Source: Rhizaria sp. SCN 62-66 (lineage: Eukaryota). Taken from it: 64,000 bases of DNA. The notes beneath the pieces are model-generated. The model saw only the letters and a list, made by a program, of their open reading frames with translations. It was not told the DNA's origin and did not search any database. Shown piece after piece: positions 8,009 through 39,271 of the stretch. A program made the position numbers and the translations under genes. How positions within the stretch are numbered: position 1 is the first letter of the stretch; each line of letters begins with the position of its first letter. The stretch lies in assembly GCA_001724265.1 (NCBI GenBank), contig MEDY01000039.1, positions 1-64,000 on the forward strand, read 5' to 3'.

Positions 8009-8048
8009 ATGTTATCTTATGCTCAATCATGTTATCTTATGCTCAATC
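8009..8048. repeat. Perfect 20-bp tandem duplication (ATGTTATCTTATGCTCAATC x2)
   Basis: Identical units at 8009-8028 and 8029-8048, just downstream of the first gene. Confidence 0.95.
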
Positions 8049-15100: not shown

Positions 15101-18100
15101 CTCAACATCGGAAGGCGTAGGTAAGAAGCTACGGCTTCCGCTGTTTCCATCACTCGCAGACTCTTTGCGCCTCGCGACTGCGAACAGTGCCTCCGTGCAA
15201 GTCACTGTGGGCAAGCCCCCGCAGATCTCTGGCCGCACGGCGCAGTTGCTGCGCGCGGTGATGGCAGTGGTGAGTGCGGCGCAAATGCAGCGAGACCAAC
15301 AACAACAGCACAAGTTGCGCTGGTCGCGTCACACAGAGCAACCTGACGACTGTAACGCCAGTAGCTCAGGCGCATCTGCAAGCTCGAGTGCTGGTGGTGA
15401 AACCGGGAGCTCTGCGAAGTCAAGCTGGCGTGCGTACATTGAGTCGCTACCACCGCTTCCATTATCATTGCCTTCATCACATGCACCATTACCAGCGAAT
15501 AACGCCAATGTGAAGGATAGCAACAGCAACAACTCAGCGACTGTGAGCACAGCGCTGCAGGACTTAGATACTCTCTACGACTTGCTCTGCCCACGGTCAC
15601 AGTGGGCTACTCTTGCTCCACAGCCTCGCGGCTTAACCTCAACGCTGTATAATTACCAGAGGAAAGCACTCTCATGGATGGTGTACCGCGAGATGCGAGA
15701 TGTGGCGCCGACGTTGGCTCCACCGCTGTCTCACGCGACGAACATGAGCGCAAACCACTGCGCCAACAATGCAGATGCATCTTGCGTAGAAGGTCGTGGT
15801 GTGTTGCCGTTAAGCTTTGATGACACGCTCACACAAGCGCCGTCGGTCTGGGGTCGAGGATTTGGCTTAGACGACGTGTTGACAACGCGTGGCTCGCATT
15901 TCGCCTCCACCGCTGCATTTTCTGATGAGAGTAAAACTAATGGCATGACTGGGCGCAAGACAGCTGATCGCGAGATTGCTGCTGTGACGGCGGCCTCTGC
16001 GGCAGATGTTGCAGCTGCCGCTGCTAATGCTGCTGGGTATTGCTCAGCGCCACACTCGGACGACAAGTTGAGCGTAATTCCTAGTATGGCATCAAGTTCG
16101 AATGTAAGCGCTCGTGCCTCATCTGGAGCCCGCGGTAGCTACGTGCCCTCTGTGTTTCCTCTTGCGCGCGACTTGACGTGGGACAGTGTGAAGAGCCATA
16201 AGTGCACTTACACAGATTTAAGTGCATCTCACAGTCACGAGCTGGGTATGTTTGCAGGCGACGAAAATGCTCCTCAAATTTGCGCTGAGTGTGGCGCACT
16301 GTCGTCTGATCGTGAACAACGCGGCGACCGTGTGCCTGGAAATACTCGTGAGATCTCTGCTGCTCCTGACCGTGAACAAGGTCAGGGTGCACTGTGGATG
16401 CACGCTCTTTCGCCAACCCTCTCGCAGAAGCCTCCTCAGCCCTTGTTCGACGTTCGCGGCGGCATCCTCGCCGACGCCATGGGGCTTGGTAAGACTGTCG
16501 AAGTGATCGCGCTTATTCTCGCGAATCCTTCCCCGTTTCCCAAGCCACGGCTCCCGCCGAGGCCCGCCGTGCTGGCCGGCTCTGGCACGCCGCTGGCCGC
16601 GACGCGGGGGCCCAACGGCAACGGCAGCGGCAGCGGCAGCAGCGCCAGTGCGACGGGCAGCAGTACGGCTCCCGCAGGCAGTGTCGTCAGTGGAGTCAAG
16701 ACTGAGAGCGCAGTAAAGCGGGAAGAAAATTTGGGTGGCCCCTCTCATAACGCCGAAGACGACGGTGATAACGGTGACAACGATGAAAGCACGTCGTTAT
16801 CGTCGCTTGCTATCACTGAAGCGGAGGCTTTGTTGGCATCGCAGCGACAACTGTGGTTTGAGGATGATGAAGTGATGGCACGCGGGAGCTGGAGCGTCTC
16901 TCCTGACGCACAAGGTGCTGGCTCAACCAGCGGTTTGCCTCATGGCACCGTCGCAAGAAGCAGCAACAGCAGAGTCTTTGTGACGAGCGAAGTGGCGTCT
17001 TATCTGTCGCTATCGCCATTGTATCAAGACCAGCAAGGCCGCGTGATTGTTACCACTCAAAATAACGCAAACCCGTCCGTTTTATCGCTCCATGCGCAAC
17101 CAAAAGAGCCACAGAAGACAAAGGCGCAAGGACGAGGCCGTCGTGCTCCTGCATTGTCCGCACCAGCAACAGAAACATCGCAAACCTCAACCTCGTTGTC
17201 GCATGATATTTCAACTGCAATCACTGCGCTGACATCAGTCAGCGGTGGCATTCGGGCCGCTGCCCCAGGCTCTTCACCTAAGGCAGCTTCAGCATCAGCC
17301 GCAGCTTCGTCGAAGGAACTGCCTGCTTCTGTCCCGTACACGGCTCTGTCACTGCATCCATTTCTTGCCGGCACGCGTGCCTTCCGCCGCGCTCTGATGT
17401 TGATGTTGCACAGCAAGCCCCACTGCCACATGCCCGCCGTCAGCGCCGCGTCTGCCGCCAAGGCGTTTCTCGCCCAGCCCAGTCCGCACTCGTCCACTGG
17501 CGGCGCGATGAACGACACTCCGCCCGGGCGCCGTGGCGGTGCCCGCGGCGGCCGCGCCGGTCGCGGTAGCGCGCGCGGCGGCAGCGGCGGTAACAATAGT
17601 CGCGGGGGTACCGCGGCGCAGAGGCATATCAACCACCTAATTGAGTCTGGAGGCGGTGGCGCGGACTCAACGGGTGTGCTCCAAATGCTTGCGGCAAGTG
17701 GCAGTGCTGTTTCTGTCTCCGCAGCCAATGCGAACGCGGGGGGTCGCCGTGGCAGCGCTCGCGGGATCAACATCAATGACGCGCAAGCGGACGTTCGAGG
17801 AGGTGATGCCGGTCAAGAGCAGACGCTGGCGGAGAAGCTTGGCGGGGACAACCCGTTTGCTGGCATCACATCTGCGTCACTCTTGGCGTACGCGATCACG
17901 GAGGCTGCTAATGCGAGCGCAGCGGTAAGCGGAGAGGCGTGGGATCAAGCTGTGTTGTCGAGCATTTGCGGGGTGAGGCATAATCAATGGAGCCACTTGC
18001 CCACTGCCGCGACCACTGCGAACAAGAACAGCATCATTGATATAGGTACTGCTGCTGTTGCCAACAGTCATTGGCCTGCTGTTACGAGCCTGACATCACT

Positions 18101-21100
18101 CCCTTCCCCGTCATATCACAACGAAGCTCAGTCATCTTTGTCAATCACGACGGCGCTCGTAACCGGTGTTGGCGATAGCGCGTGCACTGTGCCCCATGGC
18201 TGGTTTGACCCTGTGTCATGGGGACCTCGCGACTACACTCTTATTGCACCGCCTCCGCCGCGCACTCTGCTGCGCTCGGTTACATTCAGAAGCCAATCTA
18301 ACGGTAATGCTGCGGGACAACTGCAACCGGTTTTGGTGCGTGCGAGTGCCGTTTTGCGTTCTGAAGACGCATTTCTGGAGCCTGTACCTAATCGCAATCA
18401 ATGCGATTTGGGGGTGCCATTTCCTGGTGGCTTGTTAGTTAGGCGCTCTCCTGCACTGCCGCAGCCGTGCCTGAAGGCCATGCCGCTGTATACTGCAAAC
18501 ACAGATTATACGCAGCATAACTCCACAGTGTCTCTGAGTATCGTCCCCGCTGTTGCTTCTCTCATTCCGTTTAGCGAAATGACAACAACGATGCGTCTTA
18601 GCACGCAGTCAAGTGTGCCAAGCTTGCGTAAAACTGTGCTTGCAACAGCGGCTGTCGCAGCAGCTAATGTGGCGGCACGTGCGTGGGACGCGCTTGACCG
18701 TGACAACGTTGCAGAGCTGCGCGCTCCCGCACTCACAGTCTCTCTGAACAGCTCTAACCTCGGCAGTTCTGCCAGTGGTGCACGGTCACAAACCTTGGCA
18801 TCCACCGCGAGTGCTTCATCGAGCGCCACTGAGTGTGAGCCTGTTACGGCAACGCTGCGGACTGCGTGGGCTGATGGGGTGCAAGTGCGTGGTGCTCCAG
18901 AGGTGAACTCAGTCGTTGCATACCCTTTGCAGGTTACTGTAAGCGACAATGCATCCGGCGCAGCAACTGTCGTCACTGCGCAGTCGACGATGCCGACTGT
19001 GCATGGCTTGTCTTTGGTTCAGTCCCTTGACTCTACAGTCACGACCGATAAAAGTGCCAATACCTCAAGCAGTGACGTTACAAAGAGCACAAACTCGTCG
19101 GATGTTGAGTTTTCTGGAAGCTCAAGATGTGGTTTCGTCTATGATGCCCCCTCAGCTGACGCCATTTCAGCGGCCGCCGCAGTCACTGCCCCCAACGGCG
19201 CCTCGCTGCAGCTCCCCGACGGCCCCACCCTCCGCTTCGTCGTGACCCCTGCGACACTGATTGTGTGCCCGCCCAGTCTCATGTACCAGTGGGCCAGCGA
19301 GTTTGCAACACACGCGCCTAAGCTCACGGTCTGTCTTTACCATGCTGTCACGTCACAGGAGGCCCGCGCAGCGGCGGAGACCGCAGCGACGGCTCTGTCG
19401 AGCGCGATTGCAGCGTTGTCCGAAGCTGAGCAGAAGCAGGCGTCCGCATTGGCCGCGGCTGAAATGGCCGAAGCTAACGCTGCTGCTGCTGCAACTGCCG
19501 CAGTGCAAAATGTGCGCCAACAAAGGGAAGCCATGGCTCTTGGTCCGCGGGCGACAGGGTGGGGGCGCTACGCTGCATCTCTCTTCAATAATGCATCTAG
19601 GATTAATGTGAACTCTGTTGGAGGCGCGAATATGCAACGGTCGAGCGGCCTTTCAAGCAGCGCTGCGTTATCAGCGATTAAGAATCACCATCATGACAAA
19701 AAGAAAGTACAGTCTCTGCTTTACGAGAGTGATTCAGACGGTGACGCGAACGATGACACAAAATATGAGCGGCGTGAGAGCGTATCTGGCGCTGCTGTCA
19801 CGACAGCGACTATCACGAGGCCAGCACATAGCTTCTGTCGTCGCTCGCGGCTGAACATCTCAGAGGCACTGCAACCCCTTGCGCAGTCTGTCTTGACCTC
19901 GCCATTGTTTGCGCCAAACGAGGCGGAAACCAACCCAGTGCCAGTGAGCACGATGGAGCTTGGTGACGGTGACGATGACTCAGACACTGGCGAAGTTACT
20001 GATAACGGCGTCTCGTCACTCACGGTAGCAGCGGAGACATCCCTTGCTTTCCCGCAAGATTCTGTAAACACGACCTCTCTTGTTCGCGCGCGCCGCCGTG
20101 TGTGTCTTGGCTGTGGCACTGTCTCTCTTGTCGAGGCAACTGACCGCGTTCCTCTTACACTCTCTCAGCAGTTACAACAACGAACCGGTTTTGCGCGAGC
20201 CAACTCGAACGGCGTTGTGTTGGTCGATGGTGCTATCGTGTTTCCGCTTGCGACGCCGCTGTTGACTGATATCAACGGTCCGTGCAGCACGTGCGCGGCT
20301 GTTGCCGCAACGTCCAGGGTTCAATCATCAATGTCCAACCGGAAACGCCCCTCGTCAGTTGCAGAGCTCGCAGATAACGCCTCGCCTGTGGCTGCAAGTG
20401 CTGGTGGAGATGAGAACAATGCTAAGGCGTGGGCCGCGATGCAACAGCAGTATGAGACTGAGGACAACTCGTGTCCCATCTACATCTCACTCTCAGACTC
20501 CGTTACTTCAGCCTCTTTTGACAGCAGTTTGTTCTATGCGACGACAGCCGCTACAGCAGCTGCGACGAGCTCTTCAGCTGCTGCGACCAAGGCTCGTGCC
20601 GCGGCTACCGCAGCGATCGCCGCGACCGCCGCTGCGTGTTCTGCTGTTGCGCGCGCTAAGGTGGAGCTTTCAGCACACTTGGAAGCAGCTGCAGTGTCCG
20701 AGTCCGCCTTGTCACCGTCATCTCAGTACTCTGCATCGCTGCGTGATCTCTTGGCCGCTGACGTTGTCATCACGACATACGATGTGCTGCAAGCTCAACT
20801 CCACTGCGCTCCCGGTGGCGCCGGCAAATACTCTTTCCGACAAGAGAAACGCTACGCGCTGCCTGCGTCGCCGCTGCTGCAGCTGCACTGGCACCGCGTG
20901 GTGCTCGACGAAGCGCAGTACGTTAAGTCCTCGACCTGCGGGCCCGCGCGCATGGCGGCGCGCGTGTCCGCCACGCACCGCTGGGCCGTGTCGGGCACGC
21001 CGATCGGCGACCGCGGGCTGCTGGACCTGTACGGACTGCTGTTGTTCCTGAGGTTGGAGCCGTTTACGGATGTGGGCGAACGCGTGACGAGGGACATGCT

Positions 21101-24100
21101 CGCGAGTGCGCTGGAGCGGGCGAAGCGGGCACACAAGGCGAGGGTCGAATGGACTAAGACGCAGATGCTGGGGCCGCATGCGCGCACGCAGGGCTCCGAA
21201 AAGCTAGAGCGTGACAGTACCAGCACAGGTTCCGGCAATGTAGGCAATAGTGGTTCTGTGATGTGCGATGACGATGGCACTGCTGTTGTGAAACAAGAAC
21301 ATGCGCTAATGGCAACTGCTGCAAGTAACTCTGGTATCCAGGATCACTCGCTGCAGCCAACGTCTCTATCTTATTCTGCTCGAGAAAAGCACGGTGTTGT
21401 CAACGGAGCAAGCGCGGCTTTAAATACACCCGGCCTTGGCACCGGGCGCTTAGCTCAGCAAAACTTGCGCTTTGCTGCGTATAAGCGCGAGTATACGTTA
21501 CTCCGTGCACGTGTGCTGGCGCTTGCGCGGTACAACTCGTGGCTCGCGCGAACCGCTGCCAACGAAAGCACGACTTACTATACCAGAGTTGATGGAGTCA
21601 ATGTGGGCCGATGCACAACTACAACCTTGTTGCCGGAGGAGACGAACTCATCCCCTAGCGTCCACCTCTCGTTGATGGGAAGTAGTGATGCTGATGCTCT
21701 ACTCAGTATTACTCCTCTCGTCGACACTGAGTTAGATAGTCTGGTAAGCAAGATCCCAGCTGTTCTTGCGGAAATTGACATCTTTCATCGCCAATTCCCT
21801 GGAGTCGCTGATATGTCTGTGCTGGCTTCTCACGTCACTCTCACTATCGACAACTTGTACCGTGGAGTTATGACTGCGTATGCGAACAACGCGTCTTCTA
21901 TGATCAGCTCGCTGCGTAATCACATTAACAACACTCCAGGTGACGTGAATGATGCACTGAGCTGTTTGTCTTCGTCGTGCATCAGCGGCTCTGTGGTGTC
22001 TGATGAGTTGCTGCACAGTGACTGCATTCTGTATTTCATCGGTCTGAAGCATCTGTGCTTTTTTGACTGGAAAAACTACTTCCAGCAACAGGCCTCAAAT
22101 GCTTCATCAAGCGCAAGTTCAAGCGCGGATGCAAGTTCAAGCGCGTATTCTGTCAATGGCGTTCCTAGTTTGTACCAGAACTACTCCACTGTTGCTGCTG
22201 TATGCGCGGACGGCGTTGGTTCTCGCCTCCGTGAGTGTGTTTCGTTCTGTCTCCCGCTGCTCTCACGCCCAAGCGCGAATACCGATGCGCCAGCTGTGAC
22301 TGCAGAGCCTGATGTCGCGTGCCTGTGGGCTGCTGGTGTGGACTCGCTTGCGCCCATCCCACGGTCACTGCGGCCACAATGGTCGATCGCTCTCACTCAA
22401 GCCACTGTCAAGCCTACCAGTGGACCTAACGCAAACATGATCACGAGCAGTCATCTGCCACTGCAGCGTGAAGCCAGCCCGTCGCAGTCATGTGCCGCTA
22501 CTGGTGTTGTATCCTGGGGGCTGACACCCGCGGTCGACAGTCCCGCGCCACCGACACTGTCTTCGTTGTCACGGCTCTCGGTAGAGCGGTACGTGCGCGC
22601 GCACCAATTTCCCCGCCGCTGCCCGCAGTCACTGACTCCCGTTGGCGATCGCTGTGATGGCAGTGATCTAAGTGGCGACTGGGACTCTGTTGGATGCACG
22701 CTGATTACAGTAGATGTGCCCTTGGCAACTAACGCGAGCGGTGAGGCCGCTGATGCAGTGCTGGATGTAGAAGCATCCACACCTGCATCGTGGGGCGCAT
22801 TTCAAGCCCTCGTCGGCATGGCCACAACCTCAACAACACCTGTGGCAGCAGCATCGTCCAAAAGCAGCAAGGACAAAGACGATATCAACAGCGTTGCGAG
22901 CGCAATAGGCTCCCACTTTGCGCCTCTGTCGTCTGCATCTGCGTTGGTTGCAGCGGGTGAATGGGCTGCGACGCCTCAACATGGTGCCATGATCATCTTC
23001 AAATACTTAAAGCGCCTTCTCTGGCGTCATGCTAAATCGCACGTTGTCGATGAGATCCGCTTGCCGCCTCTGCATTTCCAGGCTGTGTTCTTGCGCTTCA
23101 CGCCCGTCGAGCATGAGTACTATCGCAAGTGTTTGCGTGAAGTCAAAGAGGCCGTTATCCGTGCGTACGGTGAGCAAGCTGTGCGCGGTGTGCGCGCGCG
23201 GATTGATGCCGCTAAAGCAGCTGCTGCAGCTGCTGCGACTGCTGCTGCAGCTGCAGCTGCGGTTGAAAAGCAGCGGCGCGTGTCTGCAATGGTTGCAGAA
23301 GGCCGCATCTCGGTTAATTACGATGAAGAAGAAGAGGAAGAGGAGGATGTGCAGAGCGCGAGAAACGTCTCGAACAAACTTGTTGTGAGCACTGCAAAGT
23401 CCGCAGCTGCTGCGGCCGCCGCTGCCGCTACTAACGCCGCTGCTCTTGCAGCCGCCTTGACTAGTGCAGGCACTGACAGCAATAATGTGAACGTGAATGT
23501 CAGTACTCGCCTTGACTCACTCCGCATGGCGTGCTGCCACCCGCAAATCTCCATCAATGGGCTCAACTTACTCCTGGACACCGTCGGTGGCGGCGGCGCC
23601 CCAGGCTCTGCCGCCGCACTTGCTGCCGCGGCCACGGCGGCGTCTGACTCCGGAGGCGGCTCCCGCGTGCGCACGATGCGCGAGATCGCCAGTCTTCTCC
23701 AGTCATCTGCACAGCAAGCGACCGCCGACGCGGAGCGTCACTTGGCACGCGCTCTGTCAACTCTCGGTCAATTCTACCTGAGCTTCCCTGGTGTGTACAA
23801 GACTGCAGCGATCGAGCGCGCGCTCGCCAAGGCGTGGGTGGTGTGCGACGCCGGTGTCACCGCTGGCGCCAAAATCCCGCTGCTCATGAAGCACGACGCC
23901 GTCAAGAACCGCAGCGGTCTCCACGGGCCTGCGCACGGCCGCGACGACGACGACGATGACGGCGACGACGAGGGCGATGTTGCCGCCGTGCAAGCTGTGC
24001 TCGAGCGCAGCTCGTTGAGCTTTCTGCCCACGCAAGGCATGGGGACGGACTCTGGCGTGCTGCGTCACTGGCGTATCATCGAGTTCGCAACGACCTTCCA

Positions 24101-27100
24101 CGCGTGCAATCTGCTCCGTTCGCGGTTGCAAGGAAAGCACAGTGCGTACTACTACACCACGCTGCTGCCACAGGCATTTGACCCGCCCCCGATGTCTGAC
24201 TCAGTGCTTAACTTCATGGAAACTTCCCCTGACTACGATCCCTCGCGTGCTCGTGCGGCGCAGAACGCGAGCAATCGCAACCGCGCTCGGAATAACGCCA
24301 ACAACAACGCCAACGCCAACAACAGGCGTCGTGGTGGTGGGGCAAATGCGCGGAACAACGCTGACTACGATGAGGAAGATGCAGTCATTGACCCAGCAGC
24401 GCTGGATGTGTACGGGAACGGCAATCAGTGGGATGCAAGTACCCTGGCGCGCGCACTGGCTTCAGGTCTCCACGATCAGGTACGAATCATTATCTTATGA
24501 GAATTGAGCATTTTTCTACTATTATCCAAACTAAGCCTCGAATTTTTCGATTGATTTACTGTGATTTTGATGAATATTTGATGTGCATGAACGCTAATAC
24601 TATTTGCTCGAATGCTGTTCTGTGTATATCTTTCTCTTTGTAACAGGGCTTTGGAGCTGGAGGTTTGGCTGGCGGCTCGGTCCTTGTGCGTCAGGGCTTA
24701 GCGGCCGCTGGCGTCACTCCATCAACCGCTGAGGATGCGACTCGCGCTGCCGAAGCCGCCGCCTGGCGCGGCTACAGTGGGATGAGCCCGCTTGCGCAGA
24801 CGCTCACGTACGGCGTTGACGAGAGTGGCGCTATGGTCACGACTGCGGCGCTGACGGACAAGCTGCAGACTGAGATTGTTGCGGCGACGTCCTCTTCGTT
24901 ACACGATCATTCACTCTTAACGTCCCCGCTGTACTACACGTTTACTCCAGGCACCGGTCTCTATTCGCCCTTTTTATCGGATATTCTGGACGCTGGCAAC
25001 ACGAACGACTCATTCCGTGATTATCCTGGTGACGAAACTAGCGAAGACGACGATGATAACGGCAGCGATGCTGATCTTGATACGGTGCATAACAACGATG
25101 GCAATAACGCACGCCGCTCTCGCCGCCGCAAAGAGCCTTCTGCTGGAGATATGCAGCTGGGTAGCGTCTATCTGTTTGCTCTCTCTGCCGCACGCCCTCG
25201 CCATGCGTCGACCATTGCGCCCTATGCAAGCCCACTTTCCTTCAGCAACAACGTCAACAGTGAAAATGAGTCCAAGGATGGTTTCGTGTCTACTCCAGCC
25301 GCTTTCGCTGCCGCTGCAGCCAAGACTGATATGATTCCGGCGACTGTGCCCGTGCCCGTGACAGTACCACACGGACTCACCGCGCCGTACGCACCTCGTG
25401 GATGCTTGCTATACCCGCGCAGTCGCAGAGGGACGCGCGCGGTGAAGCGTGCATTGCGGAAGTTTACGCGACTGCGGACACAGATGCCGTACGATGAGGC
25501 GGAGACGAGCGTCAACAGGGCTGCGAATAGCACCAGCAGCAGCGCAAGCGCTGCGTCTGCTTTAACTGTGAGCTCTATCGCTGGTTCCCTCGAGCAATCA
25601 GTGCGGTTTGCAGCTGACAGTGCTCGGTGTGCGGTTGGCCTCGATATGTTCATGATTGATTACTGGGACCTGATGCACGACCGTGCGACAACGCTCGACA
25701 GTATTGAGCGGACGCACGCTGAATCGCTTGTGCAGCGGATTGATGAAGATCATTTTGGCCCTGCACTTGTGATGCTTACGCGCATGATGGCCGACGCTAA
25801 TCAAAACAATGGTGTTGTCACAATCACAAATAACGACTCTAGAAGCTCTGCGAGTAGTGCTACTCACGAGACTGGACATAGAAACACAAGTGGTGATGTG
25901 GCGATCCCGGGCTTTTTGCTAATGTACAATAGCGGCACGTACGGTGCTACTGGAACCGGCGCGCTAACAGTAACCAGCTCAGCCGCCAAGGCCACTGGAG
26001 CCTCTCTTGAGAGCGACAACGCTGGCCTCTCGATCAACAGCAATGTTACTGCTGGGAATGATCTTGAGGTTGTTCGCGTTGACGATCACAGCAACAGCAT
26101 TAATGTGTTTAAAAACACGAAACCCAGCGACATCAAGAGTGCCAAGGAAGCGACTATGAAAGCAGCTTCAAGCAAAGACGCAGGCAAGAGCTCAGCTGCA
26201 GCAGCAGCAGCAGCATCGTCTGACTCGGATGCGGCTGCGGCCGAGGCTGCTGCTGCACCGGCCGTGGACCCTTCCGCTCATTACCCTGCTTTACCGTTCC
26301 CACTCACGGCATCTCAGGCATCTTCACTGGCGCGCTACCGCCGCGCGCGCTCGCACTACCGTGCCTCGCTGATTGATCTGACTTCTGACAACTATTGGCG
26401 CGTGAATGAGTTGCGTGCGCACATCCAAGCTTGGCGCATGTGGTTTCGTCGCGAGACCGTCAATGTTGCGGCTCACCTGCGTTGCCCTAACTCACGGTCT
26501 GCCGGTACCACTGCGCCGCCTGCGGGGGGGAAAGCATGGGCGCCGCCGCTGATGACGGAAGCAGTGCAGTTACTTTCGCGCTGGGAAGAGCTTTCAACTC
26601 CAGTCATCCCGCCGCCGGAGCTCATCGAGGCTGCGAACGCTGCAAGTGCAACTGCAGCGAGTGACGCAACGAAGGGCAAGGGTGACTCAAGTAGCAGGAG
26701 CAGCAAGAAGCGCGCTGCCACAGGGAGCACGGGCAAGGAGTTGGAGAGCGTAAATGCCAAGAAAGAAGCCACCGTCGCGATCGACCTAACTCCTGAACTC
26801 GTCAAGGATTTTGACCGCGACCGCCAGCACATTTTGGCACTACGCGCGCTCACATACGCGGCCATGCGCGCTCGCAACCAGTTGGAACGCTCAGTCGCGT
26901 TTGCACAAGCCATTCACCGCGACGTCTCCTTCGCCGAAGACGAGATCAAGCGTGGTATGCTCGGTAGTGCAACCTTCCACCGCTCTCGTAGCGCCGGCGT
27001 CACTGAATGCGCGACAACTGCCGCATTTGACCGCGCAGTGGACGCATGTGTGGACGCGCTCGAGCAGCGCTTAACGGCACGGCCGTGGCAGTTGCCGCAC

Positions 27101-30100
27101 ACTGCAACAGTCAAGCTCCAGGCGCTGTATCAACGCTCTGGCAAGGACCGTGTGCTCGACCGGACGCAGATGTACGGCGACCCCGTTGCGTCGCTGCCCG
27201 CGCTGCCGCAAGAGGCGCTTTATACGGCGGCGCGTACTTCCGGTAGCTTGCGCGCTGTGGGGCAGCACTCCGGTGCGAGTGCGTTTGAAGTGCAACGCAC
27301 TCTCGCGATAGACGGTGCCTGGGTGAAGCGTGATCTCGGGGCGACTGCTGCTGGTGAGACGAGCTCGCGGTGGGTTTTCACACCCCCATTGCCGCTTCAG
27401 CCACCGGATGATTGGTCTTTGTCTCGTCGTGCGACTGCAACAGGGTTTTGGGATGCTCCCGCTGTCGAAACACTTCTCTTCGACCCCGAGGCAAACTCTA
27501 GCTCTGCTTCAGCAGGACTAAGTGCGAGCGCAAGCTCTTCCGGCAGTGCTGCGGGTGGCGCCTCCGCTGCGAGCGTGAGCGGACCAGATATGGTCGCCGC
27601 ATCGTCAGCTGCGCGCGGCGTCGATATTCGCGAGGGAGTTTAGCGCTTGACAACGCTGCGCCGCCTGCTGAAACACCAGGACTCCACGCTCGCTGCATAT
27701 GCAACGCAACCCCAGCGAAATGGCTCTAGTAGTGCCGATGTTTGGAATGCCGTCGATGCTGTGACAGCGCAGCCTTTGACTGTTGCCGCAGCGCATCGTG
27801 CAGCAAGCACCCCGATGCATGTACCGCTTGTCCTCGCTTACGCAAAGCAGGTCGTTTTGTGCGAACTTCTTGCGTGTATTGAATACCGCAGCAATGTTGC
27901 GGGCAGTGCATCAAGCAACACAGCCAGTGCTACGAGCTCTAGCGCAGAGAGCAGTGACATTGTCATGATGCGCGATCCCATAGCAGCGCAGCAGCGCCTT
28001 GTTACACTTCTGCGCAAGCACGGCGCCCGCGTTCACGGCGTTGTTTCCCGTGCCCGCGGAAATGTGCTTGCTATCAACAGTTCGATCCAGCCCCCAAGCA
28101 ACGCCGACACACTCGCAGCCAGTGCCTTTGTAGCTGGTGCGGGTATTACTGTCAACGTTCCGCAATGCATGCACCCACTGGTACTGAGTCAGTTCACACA
28201 ACAAGAAGACGCCGTGCGCGCTGCGGCTGCAAATCTGGTTGATGCGGAGTCGCGTGCGACAGCACTTGCGCAGGCACGTGCAATCAACACAACACAGCGC
28301 ACCGTTGGCACTCACGCGCCGGCAACTGCGCTCTCTGGAGCCGCAATTGCCGCTGGTGAGGCCGCCGCAACCGCGGAGCGCGCGCGCCTTTGGGGCCCGG
28401 ATGCGGCTCGGTCTGCTGACGGCACGCTCATCGTCTCAGGCGGTGGTAAGCAGATGGCTGAAGAGGAAGTGCGGCTTAACTTCGCGCCCATTTTTGACTG
28501 GAACGTCAATGTTGGTGGCAACAACGCCAATGGTAACAATGATGCTGGTGTAGCCATTGCGAGTACATTGCGTGTTCCGGCTGTCGGCAACTACTTCTTC
28601 ACGTCGTCTTCACAACCATTCATCCCAGGTGTCTCCGGCGCCGGTCTGTCTGTCTCTGCGGACTCAGCGGAGGCGCAGTATGGCGGCTGCACTGCGCTGA
28701 TCCCACCGTCTCCGCATGCCGCTGCAGCAACGCAGCCTTTGGTGGCGGCCGCACTGGCTGCGCCATTTGATCTTTGCACAGCGTCCTTTGTCGCCGCAGC
28801 GTCAACCGCGCCGTTTATGCACACGAACACTCTCTTGCGCGATGGCACAAGTGCAAAGTGTGACTATCTTGACACGTTGTTTGCGCAGCGCGGCGCTGAC
28901 AACAGTATTATCAGCGTGATGCCGTGGCACAACACGCTCCTGTTGCCGCGTCTCCGTGCACTGCTACACAGCGCACGGTTCGTCCTATTTATTGCGCTTG
29001 CGCTACAGCAGGTGCGCCGTGTGCGCCTTAACATTGACACGCAGGCTCACGCACTCAGCGAGGAACTCATGACGCTTCATAACCCGCTGTTCATTCCTGT
29101 GGTGCTTCCCCAACACGCGGCCTGCGATGCCAATCCGGACGCTGTCTGGCTCGATGCTGTTGCGACTGAGTCAGCGCGCGCACACAAGGCATGTAGCTCG
29201 CTCGTTGGCCCGCGAAACAAACGCGAGACAGCATTGCAGCTTTTGCCCGACGCGGACTCTGACAAGAGTAAGCGTATGACCGACCATGATGACGACGGCG
29301 ACGATGTGACGATCGTCAATGCGATCATTCCCGCTCCTCGTCCCGCACGTTCTCTCGACGCTACTCCAAGTGTTGACTCGACGTATCTTGATCCCGTGCG
29401 CTTCTACGGTATCCACCGTCGTCTCCGCGCCAATGCTCTGCTTCTGTCGCATTTAGCACCGCCTCCAACCGCGGATAGTAATCCCTCCCCCGCTAACGTG
29501 CTTGCATTAGCCGAATCTCTGCTGCAAACGTTGCTGCAACGGTCTGGCACGGCGCGCGCCAACGCGCCGACCGAGGCTGCGCGGCGTATCGCGCTCGCGC
29601 GTGAAGCGGCGGGATTGCCAGAGCCGCTTACTGTGGCTGTAGTGAATAACATGGGGCTTGCGCATCTCTCGTGCGGTGGCGGTCCTGCTGATGACGATGA
29701 TGACGATAACAGTGCTAGTTCTGCGCACAATGACAATGCGACGTGCCGGGCGTTAAAGCTTGGTCGCTACGTAACCGACACAGTCAACACGCTCAAAACG
29801 ATGTCTTCACTCATTACGGGGCCGTCTTTCCTGGCCCGTCTAAACGCAGCCCAGCAGGCCAACAACGTGCAAGAGTGGACGCGCACGGAGCAAGAGCTGC
29901 AGGCTCGCACGCGCGCTGCGGCGGCGATGAGAGACATCTCTCCTGTCACGATGCTGCTCGCGTTGCACCGTGAGGGCGAGCGGGCGCGGCTGGAGCAACT
30001 CGTGCTGGCCGCGGAAGCCAAGGCGCTGACGTGTGTGCGACACGAGAGGTATCTCAAAACGCAGTTCGTCGGCATTAGTCAACAAGAGATGTCGGTAGCG

Positions 30101-32930
30101 GCTACCGCGGCGGCTGCGGCTGACGCTGCAGCTGAAACGGCAGCGGCAAGGGCTACAGTAGAGGACGTGACGGCAGCTACTGCATCGACCGTGACGACTG
30201 AAGCTACAGCTCTTGCGCATGCCAGTATAAGCTCAAGTGGAAGTGTCATCTCAGACGCGTCGTCCAGTGGCTCTAGCGGCTCTTTAACCGCGCCACAGAG
30301 CTTGGATGGAGCATCTCCGTTGTCGTCCCTGAGTTTGGCACAGGGTGACCCAAGCGCGTCCTTAGCCACTGCATCCGCCGTGACGCGCGTCGAAGACTGC
30401 GTGATTTGCCATGACCGTCTAAACTCGCCGCTTGTCACCTGGTGCGGACACATCTTCTGTGCGCGTTGCGTGCGCCAGTGGCTGCGCACGCGTCGTGCGT
30501 GTCCGGTGTGCCGGCAACCGCTGAAGAATGACGCGGATAACCTGTTCCCGACTGTCATCGACACTGAAGTCACCGCTGTAAATGGTGTGAGTGCTCACAG
30601 TCATTCTAGAGTGACTGAAGGACAGCCGCAAGGGTATGTTCCAGGCTCTATCATGGTTCTCGCCCCTAAGAACAGTCCGAGCGAGACTAATAACAACGTT
30701 CGCATTGATCCACATGTGAAGCGCGTGCGGAACGCTGAGACTTCGACTAGCGGCAACGCGACGATGTCCGAAGATGACGTGGCGCTGCCCGTGACAGCAA
30801 CCACAGTAACATCATCAGCGTCTGACCCCAGTGTGACAGCTGCTGGCTCTAATCAGAGGAACGCTAAACGTGGCCGTGATGCAAACATTGACAGCGTTAT
30901 CACCGACGTATTCGGACACGTTGCCGACTCTGCAAGCAGCCCTACAGCCGCGGCCCCTGCAAACTCTGCTGGGACGAACGCCGGCACTAAACCGAAGCCG
31001 CGGATGACTATGATCGAGGAGGAAGAGGTCGCTGAGGCTGAGGCTGCTGCGGCAGCATCTGCGGCTGCTGCGGCGGCAAAGGTCGCCGCTGCAGCGGCTG
31101 CGGCTGCGGCAGTAAAAGAGTTTGAGAATCGTGTGAGCAGCGTCGCGCTTTCCGAGTTATCTGATTGCGAGATTCTCGCTCTTGTCAACACTGTCGCATC
31201 TCCAACTGTTGCAGCGACCCTCAACCTAAACACTCTCAACAACTCCAGCGACAGCTCATCTTCATCAGCTTCCGCGTCTGCAGGTTTTAACCTCGAGAAC
31301 GTGGGGTCAATCGGCTTTACTCACCCTGGCGCTGTCTCTCTGCGCCTCCCACACCCACAACACATCCTCAACGCCACCTCAATGGTCGGCGACAGCGACT
31401 ACGGCACAAAGGTCGAAGCTATCTGCAAGTACATCTTGCACTTGGCTGCTGAGCAGCACCGCATTGTTGCCGCGGCAAGGGCGCGCAGGGCCGCAGTCAC
31501 CGCTCAAGTTACCGACTGGCTACGCAGGAGCACCACCGACAGCAGCACTAGCTCCAGTAGTAGTGCAACCTCAGACCAGCAGCAGGAGCAGGCAATTGCT
31601 GCGCTTGCAGCCAGCGCTGCTGAGCGTTACTGCGGCCCGTTGCCGCCCTCACAAGTCAAGTCCCTTGTATTCTCCCAGTTCGGCCGCATGCTCGACGTCG
31701 TCTCCGCCGCGCTCAATGTCAACAACGTCAGCCACTTGAACCTGAGCGGTTCCGCAAGGCAGAGGGCGGCGCTTATTCAGCAGTTCAAGACTGATCCTGA
31801 AGTACAGGTACGTAACAACTGCAAACTTTATAGTGAAGTGTAACTGAGTTTAGACACCCCGCTAGAGGTAGTGGCAACGAGTTCCTGGGCAAGCACTGTC
31901 AGAAGGCTGGCATTGATGACAAGTGGTTGGTTAAGAACCTCACACTTTATTACCACGATTTTTCCTCGTTGTATTCGAATCTACTCTTATAATTTCACAT
32001 CTACTTTATCTCTTCCCTCCGTATTCAAACATTCACTCTCGTAGGTATTGCTGCTTTCGCTGCGGTCTGACAACTCCGGCCTCACTCTCCATTGCGCTCA
32101 CCACATCTTCCTCTGCGAGCCGTCGCTGGCGCGGGCGCAAGAGGCACAGGCTGTGAACCGTGCACACCGCATTGGCCAGCGCCACGCCTGCTACGGTAAG
32201 TTAGACTTTCGACTCTCATAAGACTATCACTGTTGCGCTGTTCGAATTCTCTCAACATGTACATAATGCAAGCGTAATTGAATTATATTCTCGCTCAAAT
32301 AATATCTTCATATTAATTCTCGCTCATGTTTCGCTCTTGTATTGAATCGCCACTTTTGTTTCACCAGTGCACAAATTCTTGATCCATGGCAGCGTAGAAG
32401 AGCGCATCGTGGCCCTCCAAGCGCGCCAGCAAGCCCGAGACAACGCCCGTTCCACGTTCTTCTCTGCCCCGGCCGACGGGAGCGACCCTGGCACCAGCAG
32501 CGGCAGCGGCGACACCGAGCAGTCCCAGCAGCAGCAGAGCGGCGCTTCAAGTCTCAACGTTGGAGGGTACTCTGAAGTGGACGTGCTGACCATGGACGAG
32601 CTTTTCCAGGGAGATTTCTTCACAAACCAACACGCCGCGCTCTCCGCACGCGCTGGCGGGCACGTTCTCGGCGACGGTGATCCAGATTCGGAGCTGTCAC
32701 AACAGCAGCAGCAACGGCAGCAGCAAGTGGCTGTGGGGCGGGCGTTTGTTGGCCCGGTGGCCGCGAGTGACATCACGAGCGGATCCGTCGGTGTGCAGTC
32801 GCGCAAGGAAGTCATGTCGCTGCAGGATCTAGTCGAGGCGTTGGGGCAGGATCCCGGGGCAGCGGTGGGAGCGGGCGCTGGATCGGGCGCGGGCGCGGGT
32901 GCGGGGTCGAGGCAGCGACAGCAGCAGTGA
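9126..32930 (+). CDS. SHPRH: Giant SHPRH-like SNF2 ATPase / RING E3 ubiquitin ligase (~7,742 aa, 4 exons, 4 in-frame TAG codons)
   Basis: Exons 9126-24479, 24647-31807, 32045-32195 and 32368-32930 (TGA); the phases are consistent. Motifs in order: LYNYQRKALSWM (~15645), GGILADAMGLGKT (16458), TLIVCPPSLMYQW (19254), DVVITTYDVL, WHRVVLDEAQ (20889), RWAVSGTP, SHPRH-like LLWRHAKSHVVDEIRLPP..FTPVEHEYY (~23016), LRMACCHPQ (~23520), C3HC4 RING (30398-30511), YGTKVEA, KSLVFSQF, GLTLHCAHHIFLCEP, QAVNRAHRIGQ, VHKFLIHGSVEERI. In-frame TAG at 9867, 10365, 13044 and 27641. The start codon and the inclusion of 9126-13046 are less certain than the core. Confidence 0.85.
9867..9869 (+). other. In-frame TAG, candidate sense codon (NAFDV*AGGSG)
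   Basis: ORFs 9105-9869 and 9897-10367 share a frame, and no other stop separates them. Confidence 0.7.
10365..10367 (+). other. In-frame TAG, candidate sense codon (ALLLS*PSSAP)
   Basis: The same frame continues through 18 sense codons into ORF 10422-13046, with no AT-rich spacer. Confidence 0.75.
13044..13046 (+). other. In-frame TAG, candidate sense codon (FRAKG*KRNNV)
   Basis: The same frame continues through 49 protein-like codons (KRNNVIADEDDDDVVVLDDSDS...) into ORF 13194. Confidence 0.8.
24480..24646 (+). other. Spliceosomal intron 1 of SHPRH-like gene (GTACGA...TAACAG)
   Basis: AT-rich, 167 nt, phase 0; joins ...HDQ to GFGAGG and corrects the frame change. Confidence 0.9.
27641..27643 (+). 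other. In-frame TAG between the SNF2 N-lobe and the RING/C-lobe, candidate sense codon (IREGV*RLTTL)
   Basis: ORFs 24665-27643 and 27647-31843 share a frame and are separated only by TAG plus one codon. Confidence 0.85.
31808..32044 (+). other. Spliceosomal intron 2 of SHPRH-like gene (GTACGT...TCGTAG)
   Basis: Splicing gives DPEVQ|VLLLSLRSDNSGLTL, the helicase motif V region. Confidence 0.92.
32196..32367 (+). other. Spliceosomal intron 3 of SHPRH-like gene (GTAAGT...CACCAG)
   Basis: Phase 1; splicing gives RIGQRHACY-V-HKFLIHGSVEERI. Confidence 0.92.
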
Positions 32931-33274
32931 AGAAGTGTTACGCATGGTTTAATTATGTAATTATATGATGATATATAGAATTAACGCGCGCCAAGACGTG
33001 TGTATGTAGATAGCAATATGTTGAACTAGTATTTTAATACAATTTTAACTCTCATCATTCGTGTCTTAGACTTAAAAACCTATTATAATGCGAATTTGTC
33101 AGTCAAAAATGAATTTGTGGTGGTTGGGTCCCAGTCTGCCGACGGCATCTGACTGATGGTGCGGACATGTCCTCGCAGCAGACCGCATGATCGTCATAAT
33201 AGCGTTTATTCGAACAAGGTATATTTTCTTATTAAAATCTCTTCAAATACTATTTTCACATTGTTCCAGCAGTG

Positions 33275-34048
33275 ATGTCTGACGTCCCCGCTTCATCCGA
33301 AGCTCGGGACCGAGACACCCCTCACAGTCCGCTCGCTGCGCCGGACAACATGGACGCGTTCCTCCCCACAGCCGCAGTGCGCAACCCGCGCCCTCCTGCG
33401 ACGCGTGTGGCCGAGGACTCTGACAGCGATATCGGCGTCATCGAGACAATCATTCCTTCCTCGACGCGCGCCACTGCTTCGAGCGCGCGCAAGTCTGCCC
33501 AGGCGCAGTCGACCGACAACTAGCCCATCGCGCTCTCCGACTCAGACAACAACACCTACACCGGAGATGACAGCGATGGCGTGCAGATTGCCTCCGTCAA
33601 CGCCCGTGTGGCCGCCCGCGCCGCTACTGCAAGCAACAACAGCACCACGGACGCTGCCATCGAGCTGAGTTCCGACTCCGACTCCGACGCACGCTCCAAC
33701 ACTCACAGCTCTAAAGCCAACGCCTCGCGCTCCGCCGCGGCCCAGAAGCCTTCCCTGGCCGCCGCTGCCGCCGGCTCTGCCGCCGCGATTGCCGCGGGCG
33801 CCAAGAGCGCGATCCAGCGCGCCGCCGCAGCCCGCGCGGCCTCTCGCGGCGTCGACACCGATTCTGACTCGGACAACGACTTCGCAACCGCAGCCGCCTC
33901 GTCGACCTCTTCTCCGGAGCTGCGAAGCCGTGACGGCGTGACGTACCGATCGCGCATCTTGAACCCGTACGACGACCCCGTGGCGCCTGCCACGGGCCAC
34001 GGTGCTGTGCCGTCGCGCCGCACTGCGCAGCGCGCAGCCTCCACAGTC

Positions 34049-34125
<77 letters not shown>

Positions 34126-36638
34126 CAGCAATAGCTCGAAAACTGGCGCGGGTGCCACAGGTTCCTCTGGCGGCGACATCGCTGAGCAGCATCAGTACCA
34201 GTTCAATCTCAAGTCCCCTCTAGCAGTGACCGTTAGCACCAACGCCGCCGGGGAAACCACGTCGTCGTCGGTCACCACGCGTTACGCGCCCGCGCCAGTC
34301 ATGGGTTCCTCGGCCTCGGCGGCCGCGCTGGCCAAGGCCGCGGCGCCGCCGACGGGGCCCGACCGCAGCCGGCTCTACGGCGACGGCGACGATGAAGATG
34401 ACGACAACGCGGGGCCGGCGGTCAAGTACCGCAGTACGCTGCCGGAGGTGAAACGGAAGAGTCTCACCACGCGCTATTTCAACACGCCGGTGTGCGCGCA
34501 AGATGTCGCAGATATGCTCGCTGCGTTTGCGTCTGCTAACCCTAACATTAACAGCAACTCCACTGACCAGCAGTCCCAGCAGCAACAGCAGCAGCAGGAC
34601 AACGATCAAGACTCCGCGAATGCGGGCGCGAGTGGCAGTAATCAGTCGGCGCAAGCGTTGAGGCTTGCGTTGGGCTCTGCCGACAGTGAGTCACCTTTCC
34701 TCGCGATGAACGATGATGACGACGGTCATTTCAACGGTAATGCTGGCAAGCGGTCTGCGACTGCTGGCGCTGGCACTAAGCGTCCCTTCAGCGATGTCAA
34801 CAGCAACGGCGACACTAACCATGTCGACACGACCGCAGACTCTGCCCTTGACGCTGCCGACGCCGCTGCAGCGAGCTACTACGACGTGAACTACGACGAC
34901 TTCGAGCTCGAGTACCCGAACTCCGACTCGAGTACGGCGGCTAAGAAGCCGCACCGCCGCCGCGTCAACAGCGACGGCGAGAGCGACTACGAGTACCTCA
35001 ACGACGGCGACGACGAGGACGAGGATGACGACGACGGCAACGGTGATGATCTGAACGCGACGATGACACACGGCCGCGCGTACAGTCGCCAGAATCCAGC
35101 TTCCCCGTTCTCGCCCTACCGCGCGACTGACGGCACTACCACGGGCCACTTGCTGTCCAAGCCCGGGGCCGTTGCTGGTGCCAGTGTGAGCGCGAGTGCG
35201 AGTGGGGCTACGGCGAGTGGCGATGACTCAGCGTCCGCGTCAGCTGCCGCGCGCCGCCGCCAGTCGCTGCTGTCTGCCGCCTCCTCCGCGCCCACAGTTG
35301 TCACCGCCGCCGCCAATGCGACTGCGGCGGCGTACACGTACACTGCCGTGGCCCCGCTGGCAGCGACGACGGAGGAAGACATGCTGATGTATTATCGCCG
35401 GCTGTGCCACGGCCGCGACGACTACGCGCACTTAACTGAATCATCATCATCTTCTTCTTCGTCGAGTGCGTCGAGCGCGTCGCTGTCTGCGGTGTCGGCG
35501 CTCGTCCCCATGCCCGCGCCGACTCTGACCCCCGCCGAGACGACCGCCGCCGCGGCCCGCCTCGCGCGCACAGTCACAGTCCCCGCGGCGCTGCTCGCGC
35601 GCATCAGGGCCGACGCCGCGCCGGCCGCGCTCGCCGCCGCCGCCGCCACCGCCGCCACCGCGGCCGCCGCCGAGGTCGCCGCCGCCGCCGCGCCGCTCCC
35701 GGCCGGCCCCACCGCCGCCGCGGCCGCGCTGCCCCCGTCGCTGCGGCCTGCGACCCTGCCGCCGCTGCTGTCGACGGCCGTGCCGACCGCACCGTGCTTC
35801 CTCTGCCACAGCGGCGGCCACCACTCGCGCGACTGCCCCGCGCCGCCGTTCCCCGTCCTCGTCTGCGGGCTCTGCGGCCACACGGGACACGACACGGGCA
35901 CGTGCACGAGCGAGCCCTGTGCGCAATGCCTCTGCGTCGGCCACCACAAGGCGCAGTGCCGCTCGCTGCAGGCCGGCAGCAGGGACGAGTTCGACCGGCT
36001 CGTCATGCAGTTCTCCGCCATCTCCGCCTTCGCCAGCGCCAGCAGCAGCAGCGGCCACAAGGGCGCCGCCGCCGGGGGGAGCAGTACTGGCAGCAACGCG
36101 GCCCGGACGAGCGCGGTCATCTTGCGCGGCGCCGCTGCGTCCGCTGCCGTCGCCGCCACCGTGGCCGCGAATGACAGCGCAACCGGGCTCGACAGCTCCT
36201 TCACGGCCCCTCGCCACAGCCACGCCCACGGCCATAGTGATGGTGAGATTGCGGCTGCGATCGCGCTGCCCCCGCCCGGCAGCGGCGTCATCACCCCGGC
36301 GCCCGCCGCCGCGGCCGCCGCGACCCGGGCCGCCGAGCAGATCGCCGCCGCGATCGAGACGGCGTGGGCGCTGGCGGCCGGCATGGTCGGCAAGAAGATG
36401 GTGCCTCTGCCCACGGTCATCGCCCCGGGCGCGGCGAACACGATCCCCGGTGGCGCCAGTGGCGCCGTTGACCACAGCGGCAGCAGTTCTAACGCCGCCA
36501 ATGATAGAGCGAGCTCGGAGTCGAAGAAGCAGTCGAAGAAGCACGTGTCTGGCGAGTCGCTTGTGTGTGCCGGCCCGCCCCGCGTTCTCAGCTCGATCGC
36601 CCCCCACAACAATGCAGAGCACAGCGAGAACACCAACG

Positions 36639-36669
<31 letters not shown>

Positions 36670-39271
36670 ACAGTCAAAGTCTCAGTCAGCGTCGCCGCTG
36701 TTATACTACTACCCCTGGCCGTTGAGCACCGGCCGCGTTGGCTACGGCGCTGGCGACAAGCCCCCTCAAAGCGCCGCCGCGAGCGCCCGCGCCGCGAACG
36801 CCGGCTCTGACGGCGAGAAGCTGCCGAGCTCGATGTACAGCTTTGAGGCCGCTGCGAAGGAAGCGCGTGGGAAGAACGCCGCTGGCAAGCACCGCAACGG
36901 CAAAACGCAAGTCAACGCGCATGGCCGATTTGATGACGACGATGACATCGCGCCGACAAGTAGCAACAGCAACAGCAGCAGCAGCAGCAACAACAGCCAC
37001 GCGAATGTCAAGGCTCCGGAGCGTGCTTTCCCCCCTGGCGTCCCCACCATTGTTGACCCCGTCACAGGCGTCAAATTCCAGCTTTACCGCGATTTCTCCT
37101 CGTTACTGGACTCGATCTCGCTCTCAGATGCGCCCGACCCCAACCAGTCCCCGCGCGCTGCTTTACTGTACCTAATCAAGGCCATCCACGTGCTCTCGGC
37201 CTCTGCGCAGCTGCGACTGGCCGTGTTCCCCGGCGGCGTCCGCGGCGTGCTCAAGGCCGGCACTGGCCCGGGACCGTGCGGCCGCTGCGGGTCGCCGCTG
37301 CACCTGCAGAACATGTGCACGTGGCTGCTCACGGCGGAGTCCGCCAAGGCGCGCGTCGCCGTCAACGCGGCCGCGGACGCCGCCGCTCGCGCCGCCTTGA
37401 GCAACAACGGCAGCAGCAACGCCAACGCAGGCTCTAACGTCAACAACAGTGCGAGTGCGAGAGCAGTTGGTGGCTACAGGAGCAGTACTGAGGTGACGAA
37501 CGCGATCGCGACACTGCTGCACGTTGTCTCTGGCCCCGGCGGCGGCTCCCGCGCCGTCGACTCCGTGGTTTCCCGTTTGCGCTGCATGGTGTGTTACCAG
37601 TACGGGCACTTGACGTGCGACGGCGACCGCGGTATGGCCCAGGGACTCGCGGTCATGGGTACCGCGATGACGGCCAACATTAACCACTCGATCTACCGCG
37701 CCATCGCCCCCCAGAACCAGAACAACAACAGTAACAATAAGGCGAGCAATGACAGCAAGGGCAAGAAAAACGCGGCCAGCGCTGCGACCACAGCTGCGAA
37801 CAGCGAGGCCTTCGCCGCGGCGGACGCCACAGTCACTGAACCGGCGACGGGAGTGCGCGTGCGGTACGCCAAGATCACGGCGGGTCAGCGTGGCCGCCTC
37901 CAGTGGCTGCCGCCGAGCCTCTCGCAGCCGCTGCTGCTGCCGGCCAACACTGACAGCAACGCGCACGTGCGCGCGCAGCAGGCGTCGAAGCGCAAGACGC
38001 TCGAACCGCCGGCGCGCGCGACGGAGGCGCTGGCGTTGATCGCGGACGCTATGCAGGCCAAGGCCGCCGCCGCCATCGCCGCCGCCGCCGCCGCGAGCGG
38101 CCTGCCTCAAAGCAGCGGCGGCAACGGCGCCAGCGGCGCGAGTCTGGCCTCGCTGAAGCTCTCCGCGGGCGTCGCGGGCAGCAACAGCGCCAAGGCCAAA
38201 GCCGGCAACGCCGCCGCCTTCGGCCCCGGGTCCCCCGTCGCGGCCACGGTCGCAGTGAAGCATCTCCCGGTCACCGGCGCCGGGCTGCGCGCGCGCAGCC
38301 GCGGCGGCAGCGGCGGGAACAAGTACAGCGACCTCTCCGAGACCGACCCCGACGTGGACTCCGACAGCGACTACGACTACACCGCTGCGGCGGCTGCGGC
38401 GGCGATCTCCGCGAACGCCAACGCCGGCAAGGGCGCGACCGACGCGAGCGGCGCGATCACAGTGCGCTCGAGCACCCTCGAGGTGCCCGCGCTCCTGCTC
38501 GCCGCCGCGCTGCAGACCGACTCCGGCGGCGCCGTGGCACTTGTACGCGGCTGCGTCAACTGCGGCTCGACGGCGCACAACGTCACGGAGTGCCAGTTCC
38601 AGCGGTTTGACTCGCTCGCGCCCGAGAACCTCGAGTGCTCCAACACGGGCGTCGGAAACCAACAGAAGTGTTTCCGCTGCAACCAGCTGGGACACATCGC
38701 CGCCGCGTGCCCTAACCTCGGCAGCAACAGCGCGCACCACAGCAACCGCGGCGGCAGTGGCGGCGCGGGCGGGCGCGGGCACCATATGCAAGGCCACCAG
38801 CAGCAGCGCGGCGGCAGCGGCGGCGGCGGCGGTGACCGGCGCCGGCAGTACGACGACGACAGCGACGACGACGACGATGACGACGAGCCGCGGCACAAGG
38901 GCAAGCGCTCTCGCATGGACAACAGCAGCAGCAGCAGCAGCAGCAGCGGCCGTAGTGGGAGTGACCGCGATCGCCGGAACAGCTCTGGTGGTGGAGGCGG
39001 CGACCGGCAGTACAACAGCAGTGGCGGTGGCTCGGGCAGCAACAGCGGGCTGAGCCACATTCAGTGCCACAAGTGCAACCAGTTTGGCCACTACGTGCGC
39101 GATTGCCCGCGCGGCAGCGTGCTGATGCAGTACCAGGGCCAGGCGCGCCGCGGCGCAAACGGACCGCGGATCAATCCAGGGCAGCTCTACGCACAGCACG
39201 CCGACGACAGCAGGCGGCTCGAGGGGTACAGGCGCTCGGGCGGGCAGCACCATGGTGGGAACCACTACTGA
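33275..39271 (+). CDS. AIR1/2 / ZCCHC7-like multi zinc-knuckle protein (~1,998 aa, single exon, one in-frame TAG)
   Basis: ATG at 33275 sits at the AT-to-GC boundary, TAG at 33521-33523, and the frame continues to TGA at 39269-39271. There are seven CX2CX4HX4C knuckles plus a shortened one (CMVCYQYGHLTC), an arrangement resembling plant AIR1-like proteins. Confidence 0.75.
33521..33523 (+). other. In-frame TAG, candidate sense codon (QSTDN*PIALSDSD)
   Basis: ORFs 33272-33523 and 33581-39271 share a frame. The next in-frame ATG is about 780 nt downstream. Confidence 0.8.
34049..34123 (+). repeat. Compound microsatellite (AAC)14(AAT)11 encoding poly-Asn25
   Basis: Directly visible and in frame within the zinc-knuckle gene. 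Confidence 0.95.

Follow-up and report, generated by a model that had tools for sequence, protein, structure and literature searches.

The stretch of DNA analysed here, positions 1 to 64,000 of contig MEDY01000039.1 (assembly GCA_001724265.1, Rhizaria sp. SCN 62-66), referred to below in its full 64,000 nucleotides (nt) as the window, carries a giant RAD5-like gene for an SNF2 ATPase with a RING finger (the SNF2-RING gene), whose reading frame contains in-frame TAG codons, among them the one at 27641-27643 that is the subject of this study. The gene spans 23.8 kb and shares its domain order, i.e., SNF2 N-lobe, RING, Helicase_C, with the RAD5, HLTF and RAD16 types of SNF2 ATPases, the RING (30398-30517) preceding motif IV (31658) and thus being inserted before the C-terminal helicase lobe. 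Where it departs from these types is in its size: with TAG read as sense the protein comprises 7,742 residues, ~1,400 of them between motifs I and II and ~3,000 between motif III and the RING. Pfam recognised SNF2-rel_dom upstream of the TAG (E 6.6e-43) and, within the open reading frame (ORF) that follows it, matched several RING models to residues 919-956 (best E 1.1e-10), while a partial Helicase_C in exon 3 scored 20.9 bits, under the cut-off of 23.5, because the domain is split over three exons. When pieces of the protein were compared with PDB sequences, RAD5 (6l8n) was the sole match of the motif II-III piece at E <= 0.001 (E 1.2e-4), and the RING piece resembled many RING E3 ligases. 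A HIRAN domain N-terminal to the ATPase is typical of RAD5 and HLTF proper; as neither HIRAN nor any other Pfam family besides SNF2-rel_dom was found in 9126-13043 or 13047-24479, we refer to the gene only as RAD5-like. If TAA and TGA alone count as stops, its first-exon frame opens at 9063, and the in-frame ATG at 9126 adjoins an AT-rich intergenic region.

The TAG at 27641-27643 is the sole break between two stop-to-stop ORFs in the same frame, 24644-27643 (999 residues) and 27644-31843 (1,399 residues), the local sequence reading ...REGV before it and RLTT... after it. Further upstream, an ORF of 3,817 codons (13047-24500) is joined to the next exon via the intron at 24480-24646. A preliminary description of this DNA had proposed that the TAG parts the two lobes of the SNF2 motor, with motifs I-III on its 5' side and the RING and motifs IV-VI on its 3' side, and that it is translated. 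The partition holds: every position given there for motifs I-III, the RING and motifs IV-VI agrees with our motif mapping, and the motifs, the RING and the three introns are all intact, as judged from Pfam, the motif positions and GT..AG borders at all three introns. Translation of the TAG was supported by every indirect test that we ran, namely reading frame, coding signal, the non-intron character of its flanks and comparison with other strains. Beyond what was then proposed, the evidence presented below supports translation of TAG as a trait of the organism's code, wider than the single site at 27641.

To begin with, we counted stop codons over ten coding pieces of the window, 17,546 codons altogether, and found six TAG, no TAA and no TGA in the coding frame. 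The same codons read in frames +1 and +2 contain 65 and 112 TAG, 78 and 240 TAA, and 289 and 558 TGA, respectively; given stops this frequent off frame, the open coding frame is not due to chance. Four of the six TAGs lie in the SNF2-RING gene; the remaining two belong to two different genes, which encode a zinc-knuckle protein and a product of 675 codons (Table 1); the Sushi, ankyrin and DHHC genes of the window are each without an in-frame TAG. With four TAGs in the SNF2-RING gene, the standard code would yield a peptide of 247 residues, and no domain would be made. At gene ends the picture is reversed, TAA closing five and TGA four of nine genes and TAG none. These ends were located by accepting only TAA and TGA as stops, and one of them, that of the gene for NDUFV1 (the 51-kDa subunit of respiratory complex I), was checked by homology and agrees with the homologues.

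Table 1. Coordinates of the SNF2-RING gene, its parts, the in-frame TAG codons and other genes of the window
Feature	Position	Strand	Remarks
RAD5-like SNF2-RING gene	9126-32930	+	ATG 9126, four exons, TGA 32928-32930; 7742 codons with TAG as sense
In-frame TAG	9867-9869	+	codon 248 of SNF2-RING gene
In-frame TAG	10365-10367	+	codon 414 of SNF2-RING gene
In-frame TAG	13044-13046	+	codon 1307 of SNF2-RING gene
SNF2 N-lobe motifs I (GKT), II (DEAQ) and III	16461-21008	+	long insertion between I and II
Motif I (GKT)	16461-16496	+	
Motif II (DEAQ)	20898-20927	+	
Motif III	20982-21008	+	
Strain-variable codon	22410-22412	+	codon 4429 of SNF2-RING gene; AAG (Lys) in window, X4, X5; TAG in X2
Intron 1	24480-24646	+	167 nt, GTACGA..CAG, GC 0.32
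In-frame TAG, subject of this study	27641-27643	+	codon 6117, in ~3000-residue linker between motif III and RING
C3HC4 RING finger	30398-30517	+	Pfam, PDB-sequence matches, motif mapping
Helicase motif IV	31658-31702	+	near end of exon 2
Intron 2	31808-32044	+	237 nt, GTACGT..TAG, GC 0.42
Exon 3 with helicase motifs V and VI	32045-32195	+	motifs at 32048-32179
Intron 3	32196-32367	+	172 nt, GTAAGT..CAG, GC 0.36
Zinc-knuckle protein gene	33275-39271	+	ATG 33275, TGA 39269-39271; TAG 33521-33523 is codon 83
Orphan ORF, 951 codons	42290-45145	-	no Pfam family
ORF of 675 codons	46103-48130	-	no Pfam family; in-frame TAG 47222-47224, TAA stop
NDUFV1 gene (complex I 51-kDa subunit), spliced	61659-63356	-	used for placement and as intron reference

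The sequence on either side of the TAGs was scored with a codon log-ratio trained on five TAG-free stretches (the Sushi, ankyrin, DHHC and 951-codon genes and the SNF2 segment 13047-24479). In every segment flanking a TAG, frame 0 was positive (+0.21 to +0.66) and frames 1 and 2 were negative; immediately around 27641 the scores were +0.22 (27044-27640) and +0.24 (27644-28243), and both intron 1 and the intergenic region 7893-9062 scored negative. These values bear on the possibility that the TAGs are lost at the RNA level, either through very short or non-canonical in-frame introns or through editing, as they show the coding signal running right up to the TAGs. The window offers five verified introns for comparison, three in the SNF2-RING gene (verified by motif continuity) and two in NDUFV1 (verified by homology with a Plasmodiophora protein; 199 and 131 nt, both starting GTACGT). 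All five possess a GTA[AC]G donor, and they measure 131-237 nt with a GC fraction of 0.32-0.50, as against 0.45-0.73 in the 60-nt flanks of the six TAGs. Among 27 in-frame GT..AG candidates spanning 27641 none had such a donor, and their GC fraction was 0.50-0.65. The least bad of them, 27575-27643 (69 nt, GTGAGC..TTTAG, GC 0.62), does end exactly at the TAG, and there is a case in the window of a TAG forming the last three bases of an intron: the TAG at 62811-62813 does not serve as a codon but is the 3' end (acceptor) of an NDUFV1 intron. Nevertheless, the frame is kept across all six TAGs, unlike across introns, whose lengths vary modulo 3 (those of the SNF2-RING gene, 167, 237 and 172 nt, leave 2, 0 and 1). 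Moreover, a further TAG found in another strain (see below) arose by a point change in what is plain coding sequence in the window strain, and we know of no nuclear U-to-C editing of the kind that would be needed. Although the unspliced RNA-derived contigs described below leave room for it, we regard removal of the TAGs from the RNA as very improbable.

We then turned to other DNA samples. The window stretch was found in sequencing runs from several bioreactor and wastewater metagenome studies, including runs X2 and X4, which belong to two studies other than the likely source of the window. The TAG at 27641 is kept in both: record 13 of X4 (26161-28353) shows no difference from the window over 2193 nt, and record 7 of X2 (26597-28887) shows three, all elsewhere; in addition, the region of TAG 33521 is unchanged in record 16 of X4. 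Genes predicted on an ENA assembly are likewise interrupted here, with one predicted protein (P0002) stopping exactly at 27640 and another (P0127) starting just past the TAG. Since contigs of two other studies contain it, the TAG is real DNA and not an assembly error; nothing was found in favour of an assembly or sequencing fault at this site, and, barring a systematic fault common to all the assemblies, we consider its probability negligible. The same comparison revealed a seventh in-frame TAG, at codon 4429 of the SNF2-RING gene, which arose in X2 (contig depth ~7 at 22410) by a point change from AAG to TAG. Two strains within a wild population thus carry different sets of in-frame TAGs, with the catalytic motifs intact.

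Genes that had recently become pseudogenes, or nonsense alleles, would also contain in-frame stops under the standard code. In keeping with this, amino-acid differences between strains are frequent (in X2, 8 non-synonymous against 6 synonymous among the differences listed), and the proteins concerned are huge and largely of low complexity, with a linker that lacks homologues. Random nonsense mutation, however, would not be confined to one stop codon: with the codon usage of the window, TAG accounts for a share of 0.50 of the single-base routes to a stop, so that TAG would be drawn every time with a probability of 0.015 in six cases and of 0.008 in seven. Nonsense changes further make up 2.8% of the possible substitutions, and six of them would therefore imply ~200 substitutions, alongside which the usual ratios of indels to substitutions would predict many frameshifts; there are none in ~53 kb of coding sequence. 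No damage is seen in the motifs, in the cysteines of the RING or at the splice sites, and three different genes are affected. Decay of these genes under the standard code hence appears extremely unlikely.

Alternatively, UAG could still be a normal stop in this organism, and a few long, weakly expressed genes could depend on near-cognate tRNAs for a readthrough, programmed or leaky, that yields their full products. Several observations fit this possibility. In-frame UAG is rare (6 in 17,546 codons), all six TAGs lie in non-conserved, low-complexity sequence, no suppressor tRNA gene was seen in the 64 kb, and a C follows three of the six, C after a stop codon being a leaky context in eukaryotes. 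Set against them is the requirement, on general grounds, that four successive UAGs be passed in one message, whose combined effect would bring the yield of a domain-intact protein down to a negligible level. A stop codon in normal use would also be expected at gene ends, where TAG is absent from all nine, and would hardly be gained anew within the SNF2-RING gene, as happened in one strain. We therefore hold readthrough to be improbable.

We also considered a split SNF2 motor, with the C-terminal lobe made as a second polypeptide, and rejected it, as such an arrangement lacks credibility in a eukaryote. Beyond the TAG, ~57 codons pass before an in-frame ATG is reached, and synthesis of the N-lobe would already be prevented by the three TAGs upstream.

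Against translation of UAG as a regular sense codon several points must be weighed. UAG is ~10-20 times rarer in frame than off frame and is thus still strongly avoided. The absence of TAG from gene ends is in part circular, following as it does from the way the ends were defined, and only nine genes underlie it. Pfam, run over all TAG-containing stretches, assigned no domain to any of the six sites, nor does any of them coincide with a conserved position; ARAGORN detected no tRNA gene in the 64-kb window, and an eRF1 gene is likewise absent from it. Among the 15 differences listed between X2 and the window in the SNF2-RING gene (30 further ones lie beyond these), 6 leave the amino acid unchanged, 8 alter it and 1 creates the additional TAG; 3' of 27641 the listed differences comprise one synonymous and three non-synonymous changes. 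These are too few for a ratio of non-synonymous to synonymous substitution rates (dN/dS) and do not demonstrate purifying selection. Finally, contigs from an RNA run (X6, a polyA metatranscriptome; records 30 and 32) retain introns, and none from this run covers 27641, so that it attests neither expression nor splicing.

As to the X6 contigs themselves, those at 24241-24537 and 32077-32439 cross exon-intron borders unspliced, and the library consequently contains DNA or pre-mRNA of the organism.

Taken together, we consider it highly probable that UAG specifies an amino acid in this eukaryote, with UAA and UGA retained as stops. The TAG at 27641 is then best explained as a rare but ordinary sense codon in a non-conserved linker of one 7,742-residue chain that includes both RecA lobes, and is best seen as one visible case of UAG serving as a sense codon throughout the genome of a wastewater eukaryote not yet described. 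By analogy with known cases (PMC5304391), UAG would be read by a suppressor tRNA whose anticodon is CUA, and the release factor eRF1 may recognise UAG poorly or no longer. The very low use of UAG, only 0.34 per 1000 codons (compared with 21.2 for CAG and 13.5 for TTG), suggests that the reassignment is young or that decoding is inefficient. Concerning the amino acid inserted, Gln and Leu would be the leading candidates by precedent, which is a prior rather than a result, the local sequence contexts of the six TAGs being uninformative in this respect.

The linker that contains the TAG has the appearance of an orphan. When the 1000 residues centred on the TAG were searched for homologues, a word-indexed search of 5.8 billion proteins returned a single match, the window's own sequence, and phmmer, run exhaustively against 1.84 billion representative proteins, returned two, both of them the window's own fragments flanking the TAG. 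Within the window, a search for paralogues gave no match.

The position of the organism was approached through NDUFV1, the spliced gene of which identifies it as a eukaryote with complex I. The database protein closest to the NDUFV1 exon, from a JGI metagenome, is 95% identical, and six more metagenome proteins are 82-88% identical; together with the window sequence they make up a well-supported eight-row clade in which no member is named. FastTree placed this clade within a larger one of 64 rows, in which six of the eight named rows are Rhizaria (Plasmodiophora twice, Paulinella twice, Lotharella and Lapot), the other two being euglenid and ciliate data sets. IQ-TREE, run on 62 rows, instead joined it weakly (87) to Andalucia plus Euplotes, with Rhizaria not monophyletic. 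What the two trees have in common is that they separate the window from the rows of Amoebozoa and Opisthokonta, and we would accordingly limit any claim about the lineage, on the strength of this one protein, to a probable position outside these two groups of rows. Because the trees disagree, we claim no kinship with exLh, a rhizarian in which UAG encodes Leu. A metagenome scan with NDUFV1 yielded at least 80 loci, those listed all at <=85% identity, the 95% and 87-88% relatives not being among the matches listed; a separate scan, of contigs of prokaryotic genomes, found no further DNA of the organism. A search among shorter proteins for NDUFV1 fragments of the relatives, aimed at the amino acid encoded by UAG, gave a best match of 84% identity and none from the close clade.

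One locus from a groundwater metagenome (L072) has an in-frame TAG at 951-953, at the conserved Glu of the NuoF motif NADESEPG, and was considered as a code variant and rejected. The gene is a bacterial nuoF without introns, and its contig has low coverage (3), so that an error or a pseudogene is the likelier cause. Its context is bacterial, with an AraC-like gene upstream and a triple TGA at the end.

Few eukaryotic lineages are known in which UAG alone has been reassigned (PMC5304391, PMC11687900). In exLh (Sainouroidea), with UAA and UGA as stops, 384 in-frame UAGs were counted in 71 genes, their meaning was inferred from conserved positions, and UAG was rarer in genes thought to be highly expressed (PMC5304391). 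The window resembles exLh as DNA of a non-ciliate eukaryote in which UAG alone appears as sense and UAA and UGA appear as the sole terminators; the two differ in that UAG is heavily used in exLh, as opposed to six times in 17,546 codons here. In Iotanema spirale (Fornicata) UAG stands for Gln, making up ~8% of Gln codons, and UAA is the main stop (PMC5304391). Reassignment of UAG alone and its modest usage are features that Iotanema would share with the window, yet Iotanema is an anaerobic metamonad, whereas the window encodes a mitochondrial complex I subunit, and, if UAG meant Gln in the window, it would account for only 6 of 594 Gln codons. In phyllopharyngean ciliates UAG was reassigned to Leu, and twice to Gln, and the Discussion of the same paper lists Protocruzia (UAG to Gln) and Scotinosphaera (UAG to Ser) (PMC11687900). 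These cases are likened to the present one by UAG as sense and UAA as stop, and some of them were found in metagenome-assembled genomes. In contrast to what counts as the typical style of ciliate genomes, the window has a GC fraction of ~0.57, multi-gene DNA, introns of 131-237 nt with GTA[AC]G donors, and TGA as a stop. Overall, the window displays the testable features of codes with UAG as sense, i.e., in-frame UAG, no in-frame UAA or UGA, and UAA and UGA as terminators. Among titles and the opening lines of abstracts (supplements apart), our literature search returned no report of UAG reassignment among Cercozoa (from 2017) or in eukaryotes from wastewater or activated sludge.

As for the neighbouring genes, the zinc-knuckle protein has ~2,000 residues and includes 25 consecutive Asn as well as acidic stretches that resemble SUMO-interacting motifs (SIMs); the 5' leader of its gene may contain a GT..AG intron at ~33219-33269, just upstream of the ATG. 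For the orphan protein of 951 residues, a look-up in the Atlas suggests a very divergent ankyrin-repeat protein, the leads being only ankyrin-like and pointing to no taxon. On the minus strand, 49404-50592 holds a small spliced gene whose last ORF ends in TGA, and whose exon translations look, by eye, like a class I S-adenosylmethionine (SAM)-dependent methyltransferase.

For chromatin and repair biology, an SNF2-RING protein that runs to 7,742 residues and has orphan linkers is a curiosity. A more immediate consequence concerns annotation: standard gene callers cut at every TAG, as they did in producing P0002 and P0127, and the proteome of the organism is therefore mis-annotated in public metagenome resources. 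In the window, in-frame UAG is confined to long, low-complexity genes, and it is conceivable, if rather doubtful, that the organism represents an unreported lineage at an early or incomplete stage of the transition of UAG from stop to sense, with codon capture or an ambiguous intermediate in progress. The route by which stop codons become sense codons is debated, the proposals being codon capture, an ambiguous intermediate and tRNA loss, and a UAG that is decoded and yet rare and polymorphic among strains would let the transition be studied directly. If the lineage is indeed at such an early stage, the transition of UAG could be followed in ordinary wastewater samples.

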